A DNA stretch of 32,000 nt from Candidatus Heimdallarchaeota archaeon (lineage in GTDB: Archaea > Asgardarchaeota > Heimdallarchaeia > Heimdallarchaeales > Kariarchaeaceae), in contig JASBSB010000006.1 of assembly GCA_030149205.1 (NCBI GenBank), positions 510,001 to 542,000 on the forward strand, in the 5' to 3' direction. Below, one piece after another: positions 13,485 through 18,964 of the stretch. Positions within the stretch are counted from its first letter, which is position 1; every line of letters starts with the position of its first letter. A program made the translations under genes and the position numbers. The notes beneath the pieces were generated by a model that did not search any database, was not told the origin of the DNA, and was given only the letters and a program-made list of their open reading frames with translations.

Positions 13485-13947
13485 ACTAAGTTTTAACAAT
13501 GTTGCAATAGGAAGATGGATGTTTAACTCAAACCTTCATTTTTTTGATTTAAATGTCTTCAACGAAGGTATTGGAGGGAATTTCATGTGGAAACAGATGA
13601 ATGTCAGAATACCTGGAATCGCAGTTATAACAGATTTTCAAAAAAGACAGAAATACAAGAGTCTATCTTTTGAAGATCAAGTAAAAATGAATGATTACAA
13701 CTTTTTTGTAACTTGGGAACAAATCCAGGGGGTAGTCTCTTATCGAGTAAATAAGGAATTTAAGATAAGAACCACAGATGAAATTATTACGATTTTGTTT
13801 AGATCTCCAGCAGAATTTGATTTGCTCCTTGATAGATTAAATAATCATATAAAAGAAAAGATATTCTCAAGAGATATTGAAAAAATGAAACAATCTGTTT
13901 TTGAAGGAATGGATAAAGTTCCAGAAGATCAACTTGCTTTTAGATAA
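13474..13947 (+). CDS. Hypothetical protein, possible PH-like fold
   Basis: Overlaps the atpD stop by 11 nt. Beta-rich core (FFVTWEQIQGV...FKIRT..IITILF) followed by a C-terminal helix, as in bacterial PH-like domains. Confidence 0.6.
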   Translation: MKPELSFNNVAIGRWMFNSNLHFFDLNVFNEGIGGNFMWKQMNVRIPGIAVITDFQKRQKYKSLSFEDQVKMNDYNFFVTWEQIQGVVSYRVNKEFKIRTTDEIITILFRSPAEFDLLLDRLNNHIKEKIFSRDIEKMKQSVFEGMDKVPEDQLAFR

Positions 13948-13948
13948 A

Positions 13949-14644
13949 ATGAACGATCAAACCCAATACCATCTCTTAGAAAAATGGATTGGCTATCTTT
14001 CAATTACTAACGGAGCTCAATTTGCTGGATTTCTCCTGATTTATCTATTTGTTATTGATGTGACAAAAGTTTACTTAATTAATTTCACTTCTACAGTACC
14101 TTGGTACTTATCAATCCTTTTGACTATAATTTTGCTGGTCGACTATATTGTAAGTATCTTCGTGATTTATCTTTTAGCAAAAAACACAGAGAAATACCAA
14201 TCGATTGTGAAAATTTTTGGTTTACTTTTTGCTCTTCTCTCACTCTATGCAAGAATAAATGTCATATTTTCTGTTTTATTTCCATATGTTACACAAATCG
14301 GATTTACATGGATATACACAATAGCTCCACTTTCAAGTGTTAGTTTCGGCATTATTTTGCTCATAATTTCATACACTAACCTTTCATTCACTAATAGAAG
14401 AGGTTTACTATTATTAGCTGTAATAAATCTTCTCTTCTCGATCCCTATGGCAATTTTCGGATTTTATAATTATGTAATTACCCCTTTAGACCTCCAATTG
14501 TGGAATCAAATAGTACTTGCATATGCATTCAAAGTGACACTTTTACCTTTGATTTCTGCTTTTGTTTTTGATTCTTGGAGTAGCTCAATTAAAAAATACC
14601 GAGAATACCTTAATGAACAGAATGTAGATTCAAATAAGGAATAG
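13949..14644 (+). CDS. Polytopic membrane protein (about 6 TM)
   Basis: The ORF track starts at 13901, but ATG 13949, 1 nt after the upstream stop, is the more likely start. Six long hydrophobic segments. Confidence 0.75.
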   Translation: MNDQTQYHLLEKWIGYLSITNGAQFAGFLLIYLFVIDVTKVYLINFTSTVPWYLSILLTIILLVDYIVSIFVIYLLAKNTEKYQSIVKIFGLLFALLSLYARINVIFSVLFPYVTQIGFTWIYTIAPLSSVSFGIILLIISYTNLSFTNRRGLLLLAVINLLFSIPMAIFGFYNYVITPLDLQLWNQIVLAYAFKVTLLPLISAFVFDSWSSSIKKYREYLNEQNVDSNKE

Positions 14645-14674
14645 TTTAAATTAAATAAGGTTGAAAATCAATTA

Positions 14675-15403
14675 ATGCCTTTTTACAATGATGAACGGTT
14701 GATCCCAACAGAGGATAATGAACATCCTCTGCTTAAACTAAAGGGAAAAGAAAGGAGAAAGTTTGCAATATACTCACTAACCGGTACCGTGTTGATCACA
14801 ATTCTGTTATATATCGTTCCACCATACTACGGTTTGGAGATGCTGACGACGCATACCAGTTATTTCTTTTTAGATATATTTGGATTTAAACCCAGGTATT
14901 TTACTTATGAAGATAAAATTCAAAATCTTGAGTTCATAGATGCAATATTTTACAATCTGTTTGACAACACAAGGGCAACATACCCAGCAATTGCCATAGA
15001 AAGTAAAAATCAGCTTCCAAATTATTATATGATTATAAGAGCTTGTACGGGCATGCAAGCTGGTGCATTACTTCTTGGATTGATTTGGATGACACCAGCT
15101 CATCTCCAAAACAAAATTAAAGCTTCATATACAGTATTAATTGCATTATTTATTGGAAATGCATTAAGAATTGCCTCTATGATAGCAATCGCAACAATTT
15201 TCACAAGTGATTTTGGGGTAGACCACAACATTGCATGGCATTATGCTCATGATTGGATGGGACAGCCAATTGGATTTTTTGGTACAATACTATTTACAAT
15301 CTTTATTGAAAAAAATGATGTAAGAATTCTTGATACAATTACCCTTTGGGTGGATGTCTTAATGCAGGACGTTTTAGGGAAACTTCCCCTATTAAAGAAC
15401 TAA
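14675..15403 (+). CDS. Exosortase/archaeosortase family protein
   Basis: Multi-TM protein with the catalytic Cys (IIRACTG), Arg (NALRI) and His (AHDW) in the family order. Confidence 0.85.
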   Translation: MPFYNDERLIPTEDNEHPLLKLKGKERRKFAIYSLTGTVLITILLYIVPPYYGLEMLTTHTSYFFLDIFGFKPRYFTYEDKIQNLEFIDAIFYNLFDNTRATYPAIAIESKNQLPNYYMIIRACTGMQAGALLLGLIWMTPAHLQNKIKASYTVLIALFIGNALRIASMIAIATIFTSDFGVDHNIAWHYAHDWMGQPIGFFGTILFTIFIEKNDVRILDTITLWVDVLMQDVLGKLPLLKN

Positions 15404-15445
15404 ATAATTCTTAGCAAAATTATCCTAAAAACTTGCATTTTCTAT

Positions 15446-15462
15446 CGAAATACTTTTTTAAA
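15446..15462 (+). promoter_or_regulatory. Putative BRE-TATA promoter of tRNA-Gln
   Basis: CGAAA-TAC-TTTTTTAAA, ending 44 nt upstream of the mature tRNA 5' end. Confidence 0.5.
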
Positions 15463-15506
15463 CTCATATTATCAGGAAATTAACTTGTAAGGTTATTACA
15501 AGATAT

Positions 15507-15612
15507 AGCCCCATGGTGTAGTGGCCAATCATGGTGGACTTTGAATATTTTCAAAAGTAATCCATCGACAAGGGTTCAAAATCATTTTCTGATGAAAATC
15601 CCTTTGGGGCTA
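15507..15612 (+). tRNA. tRNA-Gln(UUG) with two introns (15545-15559 at position 37/38; 15581-15598 at position 59/60); CCA not encoded
   Basis: Acceptor stem AGCCCCA/TGGGGCT, with the A1-U72 pair typical of archaeal tRNA-Gln. Anticodon stem GTGGA/TCCAT, anticodon TTG at 15541-15543, T-stem AAGGG/CCCTT. Removing the two inserts at bulge-helix-bulge cleavage points restores the 7-nt loops CTTTGAA and TTCAAAT. Confidence 0.93.
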
Positions 15613-17973
15613 TTATTCGTCTGACAGAGAAAAATAATCACTTAAATTACCAAAATTAAAATCATCAAAACCATATTTTTGTTTCAAGTTCAAAATTTGT
15701 TCCTTAATCATTTTAAGAGATATGCCAGGTAGTCTTTGAGAAGAGTTCTCATATAAGTTTCTTAGGAGGTTCCAGAATAGGTATTCATCAGATGCATTAA
15801 GGTTTTGCTTATTGTTTAATTTGTATAAAATATCAAGCATAAGTGCCGCCTCATTATATTTGTCATTCTTTACTGAGTTAATCACGTGAAGAAGCAATAC
15901 AAAAGATAATTCAAAATCGAATTGTTCACTCATCCAGGTTAATATCTGTGTGTTCTCAGTATACTTTACTCTCTCTTCATAGCTCTCCATAAGTTCTTTT
16001 GCTCGAACTTTGGCTAAAACTGCCCTTTCTTCGGATTTAAGTTCATTAAACCAAATATTGAAAAATTCTTGAAATTCATCTTCCAAGCTTAATTTTGAGG
16101 AATATTTTTTCTTGCGGATTGTCAGTAACAATATCTTAAGAGTGAAAATTTGTAATCTAAGAGCAGGTCGAATTGTTATATTTAAATGATGTGTGATCAA
16201 TCTTTCACATTCATCATATTCACCAGACCAAATTAATAGACGCAACTTTTTTAAGATATCTTCTTCCTGTTTTGAAAAAAGACCCCAAAAATCAATTGGA
16301 TTAACAGACTTGTAACCTGGATTGAGAACATATGAAGAGGATCCAACCATTAACTTTAGTTTATCTAAACCAAAAGGATTTAGTTGATGTGAGGTTTCAA
16401 GGATTTCTCTCACAGAATCTAAAGTTTTATTTTCAAGCTTTACTGTTTCAAACTTCTTCCCTTCGAAGACTCCCGGTTTTAAAAAGCTTTGTGCAATTGG
16501 GAAAAAATTATTTACTGGAACAAAGGTACTGGATAAAAATTTGAGTTTCTCGAGGTAGGAGTTTGCATGATTATTTTGATTTAGTAAAATATAAAAGAAG
16601 GCACGGTTTTCAAGCGTTAGTGCATGTAATAATTCAGTGGGAAATTCATGTTCTTTAAACTGTTTATTTATCTCATGATACACCTCTATTACAAATTGTA
16701 ATTTAATTTCCGAAATATTCCCTTCACTAACAGATTCTTTTATTATATAATGCTGTAATGTGTATCTCGCAACAATTTTGTTTGTTTCTGTTTTAAATAA
16801 TGGAAGAAGAAGTTCATCAAAATTTTGAAAATCAGAAAGCTCCTTGTGGGGTGATAAAATGATATTGATTAAGTCAAACAATTCACGAAGGTTTGAAAAT
16901 TCTCCTTCCCTATCTTCAAATAATGCTAAATATGACTTCTTTTCTGTTGGGTTATCAATTAAATAAAAAAATATATTCAATAAAAACATCCCTCTCTCCC
17001 AAAACTGGTGAATGCTACCCAACTTAAACGGGTTGAAAACCTTATTTTGTAAAAAATCAATTGCTTCACGGGATTTTGACTGAATGAACAATGAAGTGAT
17101 ATAAATTGGAACAAAAGCTTCTAGATAAGCTGAGGCAAAATCATTTTCTTCAAGAACCCGAAGTACCTCATTATCTCCGTCTGTGTACTGCTTTAGAAGA
17201 TAAAGAGCAAAACAATAATTATATCGAACACGAAGCTGATCTACCTCACTTCCACCATATCTGTCATAATATGAGATTAAAGCCTGCGTAGTTTTAAGGT
17301 AATTAGTGTATTCCCCAAGATCATAATATGCCTTGCTTAAAAGAAACAGGGAAAGTAAAACAAGTTTTGGGTCATTTACTTCCCTCGCATATTCTAAACC
17401 TTGGTCACAAATTGATATTAAAGACAGAGTATTCGAAGTTACTATGAAATATTCTCCCAGGAACGTAAAATAATTCTTCAAATTATATAAAACAGGAATG
17501 GTAAAGGGGCCTTCTTCTATAATTGAAGCATACTTTTGACTATTTTTAATAAGTAATCCTTTAAACTCTGAGTCGTTATACAAAACTGTCATTTTTTTGT
17601 CCAAAATTGGTATAGCAATGTTTGGTTTGGGCTCAGAGTACACCCACGACATTGCCCATATCCATAACAACAAGAAATTTAGCTCAAATAGCTCTGATTT
17701 TTCTCTGGTAACTTGAATTGATTTGAAGATAGATTCGTATGATCTTTGAACTTTTGATTTGATCCCTTCATTTAAAGTTGTAAGTTCGTTCAAGGCACTG
17801 TTGATTGAAGTTAAAACCACTATCAATTCAAATTCCTTTTTAGCTAATGGAAAATCTAAATCCAGAAAATTAATTGGTGACTCGATGTTCTCTCCGATTA
17901 AATCAATCAAATGTTCATCTATAAATTTGATAAAATTATTTGAATGAAAAATTTCTTTAGTGTTTATCCTCAA
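15613..17973 (-). CDS. Large alpha-helical (TPR-like) hypothetical protein, 786 aa
   Basis: TTG start. Helix-repeat patterns (LFLLSKAYYDLGEY; YNYCFALYLLKQY; SGEYDECERLI). Very AT-rich. The stop codon directly abuts the tRNA discriminator base. Confidence 0.8.
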   Translation of the reverse strand: MRINTKEIFHSNNFIKFIDEHLIDLIGENIESPINFLDLDFPLAKKEFELIVVLTSINSALNELTTLNEGIKSKVQRSYESIFKSIQVTREKSELFELNFLLLWIWAMSWVYSEPKPNIAIPILDKKMTVLYNDSEFKGLLIKNSQKYASIIEEGPFTIPVLYNLKNYFTFLGEYFIVTSNTLSLISICDQGLEYAREVNDPKLVLLSLFLLSKAYYDLGEYTNYLKTTQALISYYDRYGGSEVDQLRVRYNYCFALYLLKQYTDGDNEVLRVLEENDFASAYLEAFVPIYITSLFIQSKSREAIDFLQNKVFNPFKLGSIHQFWERGMFLLNIFFYLIDNPTEKKSYLALFEDREGEFSNLRELFDLINIILSPHKELSDFQNFDELLLPLFKTETNKIVARYTLQHYIIKESVSEGNISEIKLQFVIEVYHEINKQFKEHEFPTELLHALTLENRAFFYILLNQNNHANSYLEKLKFLSSTFVPVNNFFPIAQSFLKPGVFEGKKFETVKLENKTLDSVREILETSHQLNPFGLDKLKLMVGSSSYVLNPGYKSVNPIDFWGLFSKQEEDILKKLRLLIWSGEYDECERLITHHLNITIRPALRLQIFTLKILLLTIRKKKYSSKLSLEDEFQEFFNIWFNELKSEERAVLAKVRAKELMESYEERVKYTENTQILTWMSEQFDFELSFVLLLHVINSVKNDKYNEAALMLDILYKLNNKQNLNASDEYLFWNLLRNLYENSSQRLPGISLKMIKEQILNLKQKYGFDDFNFGNLSDYFSLSDE

Positions 17974-18127
17974 AGGTTCCCTATTATTATATATTCTTTT
18001 TATTTTTAAGGATTGACAAATGTACTGTAAACGAATTTAGATTTAAGTGTACATAATTACCTGCTGAATAGTCTTTCTGTTGGAATAAAGGTATAAAGCT
18101 TAATAATTCAATCAGGAATTGATTCAT

Positions 18128-18964
18128 ATGGTTCTTGAAAAAGCAGTGAACTGGGCTAAAGCAAATTTGTATGACGAAACAACTGATGGGCTGATGCTAA
18201 TAGGTTCTTGGGCAAGAAACAGAGAAGGAGATATAAATGATATTGATTTCGCACAAATTAAAAAGAACCAATTAGCTGCAATAGAGCAGAGGGAAGTGAT
18301 TCAAGATGACTTCATTCTTGATGTATGGGTGTATGACTATAATGCGCTAAGATTTGACCTCACTGAACCACCAGTCGATAGTAACCAAATTGCTAATATC
18401 TCAATATCACTCCAATTTCTCCTTGATGGGGAGATACTACAAGAGAGAGGTGATAGTATTTCTGAATTAAAAAATTTAGCTAAAAGTTATACTTGGGATA
18501 AAGACACAGAAGATTTACTAAACTTCAATTCCACCCCTCCCTCAAATCAATTCCTACAAAAAGCCTATGAAGAAAATCTTATTCTTATTCAACTCATAAA
18601 AGAAAAAATTCATGTCAATAAACCTGCTACATTCAGAAGGAAAGATTATCCTAGATTAAATCAGGTTACTGACCCATCTGAAATACAAAATTTGTTCCAG
18701 CTTACGAAAGATTCTTACAATAAGCTAGGTATAACCCGAAATTGGCCACAGTTTAAGGACGCAGAAAAAGCTCTGTTGATTAAAAATTGGTCAGGCGTCT
18801 TATCATCAATCAAAGATGTTCTGACCTATATTTTAAGATATGAACTTCCAAGTGTGCCAGATCAATTAATCGACCCCAACATTTGGAGATCCGTTGAAAA
18901 CTTTAAAATTAATCCTGTTACAATGAAGGCTATTGAATTGGCCTATTCTATCCCCTGCTCTTGA
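18128..18964 (+). CDS. Pol-beta superfamily nucleotidyltransferase domain protein
   Basis: LMLIGSWAR...DIDF plus a third acidic residue (LDVW), followed by a helical C-terminal domain. ATG 18128 is preferred over TTG 18119. Confidence 0.8.
   Translation: MVLEKAVNWAKANLYDETTDGLMLIGSWARNREGDINDIDFAQIKKNQLAAIEQREVIQDDFILDVWVYDYNALRFDLTEPPVDSNQIANISISLQFLLDGEILQERGDSISELKNLAKSYTWDKDTEDLLNFNSTPPSNQFLQKAYEENLILIQLIKEKIHVNKPATFRRKDYPRLNQVTDPSEIQNLFQLTKDSYNKLGITRNWPQFKDAEKALLIKNWSGVLSSIKDVLTYILRYELPSVPDQLIDPNIWRSVENFKINPVTMKAIELAYSIPCS

Follow-up and report, generated by a model that had tools for sequence, protein, structure and literature searches.

Positions 15507 to 15612 of the window, by which we mean the whole stretch of 32,000 nucleotides that was analysed, hold on the forward strand a real and apparently essential tRNA-Gln(UUG) gene with two short introns (Table 1). 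Inspection of 15400-15720 showed the parts of a class I tRNA in the correct order with two interruptions. When both introns are excised in silico, the remaining 73 nt form a cloverleaf that ARAGORN identifies as tRNA-Gln(ttg). It has a 7-bp acceptor, a D arm with G18G19, a 5-bp anticodon stem, a 7-nt loop, U33, the anticodon UUG and a T arm in which T54-T55-C56 and A58 are all present; every stem and every conserved nucleotide of this product is intact. An initial annotation of the locus, made from the sequence alone, had proposed this gene with its two introns at these positions, one with a strict and one with a relaxed bulge-helix-bulge (BHB) motif, and had stated that cutting at the bulges gives a standard cloverleaf. 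Its coordinates and helices were all correct when the sequence was read again, the ARAGORN call on the spliced sequence agrees with the proposed cleavage sites, and the overall assignment is upheld by BHB scoring, by ARAGORN and by the alignment of relatives described below.

TABLE 1. Coordinates (window numbering) of the interrupted tRNA-Gln(UUG) gene and its splicing motifs; a hyphen within a bulge marks the predicted cut
Feature	Position	Strand	Description
Candidate TATA-box element	15457..15462	+	TTTAAA, 50 nt upstream of the mature 5' end
tRNA-Gln(UUG) gene	15507..15612	+	106-nt precursor body, no encoded CCA
Exon 1	15507..15544	+	38 nt, positions 1-37: acceptor 5' strand, D arm, anticodon stem 5' strand, loop part C32-A37
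Anticodon (in exon 1)	15541..15543	+	TTG
Intron 1	15545..15559	+	15 nt, canonical position 37/38, relaxed BHB
Intron 1 BHB	15539..15542 / 15554..15557		Central helix CTTT / AAAG; bulges GA-A and TA-A
Intron 1 flanks			Exon side, 5-bp anticodon stem; intron side, single T-A pair
Exon 2	15560..15580	+	21 nt, positions 38-59: anticodon stem 3' strand, 4-nt variable loop, T stem 5' strand, T54-A59
Intron 2	15581..15598	+	18 nt, non-canonical T-loop position 59/60, strict hBHBh'
Intron 2 BHB	15575..15578 / 15593..15596		Central helix TTCA / TGAA; bulges AA-A and AA-T
Intron 2 flanks			Exon side, 5-bp T stem; intron side, TCA/TGA (3 bp)
Exon 3	15599..15612	+	14 nt, positions 60-73: T60, T stem 3' strand, acceptor 3' strand, discriminator A73
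Junctions of spliced product (predicted)			CTTTGAATCC and TTCAAATCC

The motif TTTAA[AG] is found at -62 to -38 in 14 of 45 tRNA upstream regions, compared with 4% of random genomic positions, for an interval that was chosen post hoc; its reading as a TATA element is suggestive only, and its placement would probably imply leaders of roughly 15-25 nt. Four ORFs of 247, 242, 786 and 281 aa lie near the tRNA (13901-15403, plus strand; 15613-17973, minus strand; 18119-18964, plus strand), and none of them has a Pfam match at E<=0.001. The end of the 786-aa ORF abuts the 3' end of the tRNA in convergent orientation. A C/D-box guide RNA built from TGATGA (15591-15596, inside intron 2) and CTGA (15622-15625, about 26 nt downstream) was considered and rejected: the Rfam snoRNA match has an E value of about 5, and the C-box-like hexamer is attributed to chance because it is the TGA of the intron-side helix running into the TGAA of the central helix.

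Splicing motifs and folding

Our own scorer gave a central helix (H) of 4 bp and an exon-side helix (h) of 5 bp for both introns, with an intron-side helix (h') of 1 bp for intron 1 and 3 bp for intron 2. Intron 2 has the strict hBHBh' form, in which h and h' each measure 2 bp or more, and was recovered by a genome-wide strict BHB scan. Intron 1, which has only one T-A pair in h' and whose 5' bulge is paired in the minimum free energy (MFE) structure, lies outside this form, which also calls for a free 5' bulge, and was classed as a relaxed (hBH-type) motif.

A BHB motif on its own proves little, since this AT-rich genome is full of them: the strict scan listed 163,183 candidates, and on each strand a loose BHB-like motif turns up roughly every 40 nt. 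The evidential weight lies instead in the exact register of the two motifs. In-place shuffling of intron 1 regained a 4-bp central helix in 0.6% of trials, and shuffling of intron 2 regained the central helix together with an h' of at least 3 bp in 0.06%; random genomic 18-mers placed at 59/60 produced the latter combination in 0.14% of trials. Excision of exactly both segments is the only operation that yields a tRNA. With intron 1 alone removed ARAGORN makes no call, and with intron 2 alone removed a match appears only when the intron search is on and is mis-typed as Lys(ttt), because ARAGORN sets the intron one base off. The abundance of loose motifs could be taken to mean that the locus is merely AT-rich intergenic DNA in which tRNA-like pieces occur by chance. 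However, the joint shuffle probability of obtaining both in-register BHBs is about 4e-6, and the spliced product agrees along its full 73 positions with relatives' Gln(UUG) genes and shows compensatory stem changes relative to them. A chance resemblance is effectively refuted by the spliced tRNA call, the shuffles and the relatives' alignment, and we regard it as extremely improbable.

Folding with RNAfold placed the T arm at -7.5 kcal/mol in its MFE structure, which keeps an inner hairpin and leaves the central helix open, versus -5.7 kcal/mol for the BHB conformer; for the anticodon arm, in which the MFE structure pairs the 5' bulge, the values were -8.1 and -5.8 kcal/mol. Neither BHB is the predicted ground state, and both BHB conformers are predicted to lie within about 2 kcal/mol of it. 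BHB elements are usually not drawn as the MFE fold.

Detection by annotation tools

ARAGORN detects no tRNA anywhere in the window, and Rfam at its gathering threshold reports nothing; at permissive settings the Rfam tRNA model gives a partial alignment only, of 14.3 bits. The expectation that standard annotators would miss the gene thus holds for ARAGORN and for the Rfam model. Applied to the relatives' loci, RF00005 scored intron-less Gln(UUG) genes at 62-65 bits and a gene with a canonical intron at 54 bits, and fully missed both a gene with a T-loop intron only (in the relative G002) and the two-intron Gln(CUG) gene of the genome studied here. Because of this distribution of scores, we attribute the blindness of the Rfam model to the T-loop intron and not to the canonical one, and the comparison is a clear demonstration of what hides such genes from it. 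The failure of ARAGORN on the present gene is put down to the T-loop intron as well.

Elsewhere in the genome, several unusual ARAGORN calls arose from ordinary tRNAs whose canonical introns had been set in the wrong place. The true identities are Pro CGG for 'Phe aaa' (C8:37367), Arg UCG for 'SeC tca' (C7:348060) and Ala UGC for a second 'Ser tga' (C8:124991). ARAGORN also calls a 'Stop tta' at C4:59648.

Uniqueness of the tRNA-Gln(UUG) gene

A SPLITS-like scan was written that lists BHB candidates, splices each of them and submits the product to ARAGORN, under strict and then relaxed criteria. Together with the 22 tRNAs seen by Rfam, it recovered about 46 tRNA genes, which cover every standard archaeal anticodon except Arg(CCG); a tRNA-Arg(CCG) was not found by any approach used on the whole genome. 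The glutamine set consists of the Gln(UUG) gene described here and one Gln(CUG) gene. A second intact tRNA-Gln(UUG), which the initial annotation had named as an observation that would count against its reading, was searched for with the scan and ARAGORN in the whole 93.5%-complete genome, and none was found. Among the other 'Gln ttg' calls, the only one with a locus of its own (C4, reverse strand) is a 99-nt mis-fold of 21% GC, and the rest stem from Thr(UGU) and Ala(UGC) genes whose canonical introns were positioned wrongly. In long ORFs, 64% of the glutamine codons are CAA. As the sole Gln(UUG) gene in a genome in which CAA is the majority codon, the gene cannot be a dispensable copy, and without it the genome would seem to have no tRNA for its commonest glutamine codon.

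These results bear on whether the locus might be a decaying tRNA pseudogene, non-functional, with the inserts as scars that are never removed, as its invisibility to standard tools could be taken to indicate. We consider this very unlikely: the glutamine set and the codon usage speak against it, as do the stems and conserved nucleotides that are intact after splicing, the presence of in-register BHBs in both inserts and the recurrence of the same design in 23 other tRNAs, without which, taken together, the anticodon set would be incomplete.

When a second metagenome (X2, from a hydrothermal vent, 37% of words) was compared with 15200-15900, none of its contigs spanned the gene; its short pieces over 15507-15543 are Gln tRNAs of other organisms.

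Splicing enzymes and identity of the organism

The genome contains two EndA paralogues (G000:C4:500350-500844 and G000:C2:623316-623762), both matched by PF01974 and PF02778 and both of about 190-210 aa with N- and C-terminal domains. One of them, alpha, aligns best with the catalytic alpha subunit of Aeropyrum pernix EndA (3P1Z chain B, E=3e-31, about 40% identity); the alignment is gap-free through the Crenarchaea-specific loop, with Lys at the columns of both Lys44 and Arg46, and the catalytic Tyr/His/Lys triad is intact in alignment to 3P1Z_B and 1A79. The other, beta, keeps the Tyr and the Lys and has Ser at the catalytic His column, as would be expected of a structural subunit. In sequence, the pair thus resembles the A. 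pernix enzyme (3P1Z) in having two paralogues and, in alpha, the triad, the uninterrupted loop and the two lysines. The beta subunit is closer to the M. jannaschii and M. kandleri EndA proteins, which are its best alignments, than to crenarchaeal beta subunits. These features support the presence of genes for a two-subunit, putatively (alpha-beta)2 EndA with predicted broad specificity. The initial annotation had supposed that the lineage possesses an endonuclease of this kind, and at the sequence level the two paralogues, the loop, the Lys44 equivalent and the triad bear this out.

An RtcB ligase is also present (555 bits). A eukaryote-type actin (445 bits over the full model) and an ESCRT-II EAP30 gene (99.8 bits) beside two Snf7 genes, at 41.8-45.7 kb of C8, mark the organism as an Asgard archaeon on the evidence of its gene content.

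T-loop introns in other tRNA genes

Removal of a 17-30-nt segment at 59/60 is needed in 24 of the approximately 46 tRNA genes, about half of the genome's complement, and 12 of these 24 also carry an intron at 37/38. The overall load is about 1.1 introns per tRNA gene and is dominated by the single site 59/60. All 24 genes have the same layout, in which a 5-bp T stem is followed by TTCR paired with the last-but-two tetramer of the intron, one bulge consisting of A58-N59 and the first intron base and the other of two intron bases and T60. Position 57 covaries with its intron partner: R57 is A with T in the intron in 15 of 15 cases and G with C in 7 of 9 (Fisher p=8e-7), both exceptions being G.A. 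This covariation supports the predicted central helix of the BHB.

The same observations bear on whether the T-loop insert is removed or, with only intron 1 being spliced, persists in mature tRNA to form an expanded T-loop hairpin. The stable inner hairpin and open central helix of the T-arm MFE structure are in line with retention. However, a retained insert would sequester T54-C56 and break the universal contacts between the T loop and the D loop, the covariation between R57 and the intron in 22 of 24 genes shows selection on the BHB central helix and not on a mere hairpin, and the genome possesses a loop-bearing EndA suited to such sites. Retention is therefore judged highly unlikely, and removal of both introns is the reading that we follow below.

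No two of the 24 genes have the same intron-side helix sequence, and the length of this helix ranges from 2 to 9 bp. Only in Leu UAA (G000:C4:455919-455948) and Pro UGG (G000:C2:480740-480769) does the central helix contain a G.A mismatch (TTCG/AGAA); these two have the longest T-loop introns of the 24 (30 nt). The intron-side helix of Pro UGG is the longest of the set (9 bp) and that of Leu UAA has 4 bp; the long helix of Pro UGG may offset its mismatch.

Two introns are arranged in the same way in the Gln(CUG) paralogue (G000:C4:122005-122106), which has an h' of TTC/GAA versus TCA/TGA in Gln(UUG) and CTCT/AGAG in place of CTTT/AAAG as the central helix of intron 1. The latter difference is compensatory, from U34-A to C34-G, and lies opposite anticodon base 34. 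Local alignments among the 24 T-loop introns reached only the level of shuffled sequences (maximum 8 versus 7.8 +/- 0.9), and gave no indication of intron copying. The mutual dissimilarity of these introns means that there is no sign of a copy-type spread as in Thermoproteales.

Comparison with relatives

Intron-less 73-nt Gln(UUG) genes are present in two genomes of the same genus (G001 and G003) and in two of the same family (G007 and G008). Alignment to these four genes places gaps exactly at 37/38 and 59/60, and all share the T-loop TTCAAAT. The Gln(UUG) gene of G002 has only a T-loop intron, of 31 nt and unrelated sequence, and that of G040 has only a canonical intron, of 29 nt. Parsimony favours gains of the Gln(UUG) introns, which agrees with the repeated and often terminal-branch gains described in a 2026 preprint (10.64898/2026.10.13.758758). 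Searches with tblastn from the genes flanking the gene in the window found no matches at the relatives' Gln loci; with synteny lacking, the intron-less genes are treated as orthologues on isoacceptor identity only.

A sequence pattern for the 59/60 intron had 25 matches in the genome studied here (G000; at most 1 in the control) versus 0-9 in 40 relatives, a count that is biased towards G000 because the pattern was built from its own 24 cases. The number of Rfam-detectable tRNAs is an unbiased proxy and agrees with the pattern count: 22 are detected in G000 (93.5% complete) versus mostly 34-47 in relatives that are at least 88% complete. On both measures, G000 looks like an outlier in its number of T-loop introns. 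The relatives G002, G004, G009 and G013 also have low tRNA counts. It is possible, although we hold this only tentatively and think it somewhat doubtful, that a recent, site-specific burst of intron gain at 59/60 has occurred in this species lineage.

The two Gln genes of G000 (15570-15604 in the window for Gln(UUG), and the Gln(CUG) gene on C4) do not differ from each other in the variable loop and T arm (CGAC AAGGG...CCCTT), where congeners have CCCGG/CCGGG; the other stems of the pair differ from each other. The UUG and CUG genes of G002 differ only at base 34, and their 31-nt T-loop introns are nearly identical. These sequence likenesses suggest that concerted evolution or gene conversion could carry an intron from one Gln isoacceptor to the other.

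Discussion

Our results indicate with high confidence that the locus is the single functional tRNA-Gln(UUG) gene of an Asgard archaeon, with BHB introns at 37/38 and 59/60 that would be cut by EndA and whose exons would be joined by RtcB. The observed anatomy of the gene, its uniqueness in the genome, the enzyme genes with the key residues that they encode and the repeated occurrence of this layout in other tRNA genes allow a path to be proposed for its transcription, cleavage and ligation. The gene is most likely transcribed as a body of about 106 nt preceded by a leader, and in the transcript each intron and the exon beside it would form a bulge-helix-bulge. The 5-bp stem of the anticodon arm would stack on a 4-bp helix formed by C32-U35 and the intron AAAG, and that of the T arm on a 4-bp helix formed by T54-A57 and the intron UGAA; of the two bulges in either arm, one would comprise loop nucleotides 5 and 6 with the first intron base, and the other the final two intron bases with loop nucleotide 7. 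A heterotetrameric (alpha-beta)2 EndA would cut after the second base of each bulge, and RtcB would join the three exons into a 73-nt tRNA. Position 59/60 is, as can be read off the sequence itself, an exact geometric twin of 37/38, with a 5-bp stem on a helix of loop nucleotides 1-4 and a cut between nucleotides 6 and 7, and this likeness of the two arms explains why it is a favoured intron site.

The primary work on non-canonical archaeal tRNA introns is reportedly that of Marck and Grosjean in 2003 and of Sugahara et al. in 2007/2008. Position 59/60 is listed among the known non-canonical intron sites by Yoshihisa (2014, PMC4090602). The 59/60 introns of Crenarchaeota and Thermoproteales share with the gene described here the position, the hBHBh' geometry, the pairing with an intron at 37/38 and the dependence on a broad-specificity EndA, which for this gene is predicted from the enzyme genes. 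The hosts differ, being a hyperthermophilic crenarchaeon in the one case and an Asgard archaeon with 35% GC in the other. The introns differ also in their relations to each other: they are mutually dissimilar here, whereas those of Thermoproteales form transposition-like families, according to the account of Fujishima (2010) given in PMC4033280. Hirata et al. (2011, PMC3241643) showed that the Crenarchaea-specific loop and Lys44 enable the enzyme to cut relaxed motifs and introns at non-standard positions, and Kaneta et al. (2018, PMC5829648) found that Asgard archaea carry an (alpha-beta)2 EndA with an L1 loop.

The initial annotation had placed multi-intron tRNAs chiefly in Thermoproteales, other TACK lineages and ARMAN. 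This list is out of date, as the host is an Asgard archaeon and the trait has been published from that group (PMC5829648, PMC11291895, 10.64898/2026.10.13.758758). One study described Asgard genomes in which 92-95% of tRNA genes are interrupted, many by several introns and at non-canonical sites (2024, PMC11291895), and its Supplementary Data 4 includes a two-intron tRNA-Gln(TTG) of Atabeyarchaeia-1 in which intron 2 ends 17 nt before the end of the gene. The first intron of the Atabeyarchaeia gene lies in the D region, however, and that of the gene described here at 37/38. Goswami et al. (2026 preprint, 10.64898/2026.10.13.758758) found the T arm to be a main site of called introns, with repeated gains that are often on terminal branches. 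The interrupted tRNAs of these two reports (PMC11291895; 10.64898/2026.10.13.758758) are like those of the present genome in that most genes are split, many have two introns, and the introns cluster in the anticodon loop and the T arm; unlike the genome studied here, the two reports centre on Atabeyarchaeia, Freyarchaeia and Jordiarchaeia.

The 59/60 site, the Asgard (alpha-beta)2 EndA with its L1 loop and the heavy interruption of Asgard tRNA genes are therefore already published; the mechanism is the standard one, and the gene is an ordinary example of a published Asgard trait. For the gene alone, the result is a corrected annotation of a tRNA missed by ARAGORN and by general covariance models, and the published record of interrupted Asgard tRNA genes gains one more well-documented example. 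If the placement of the genome in the Heimdall group is true, the genome would be an intron-rich outlier in a class that has been reported to be intron-poor. If the burst of intron gain at 59/60 is also true, the lineage would offer a natural system for studying how BHB introns arrive, given that the introns show no sign of having been copied from each other.
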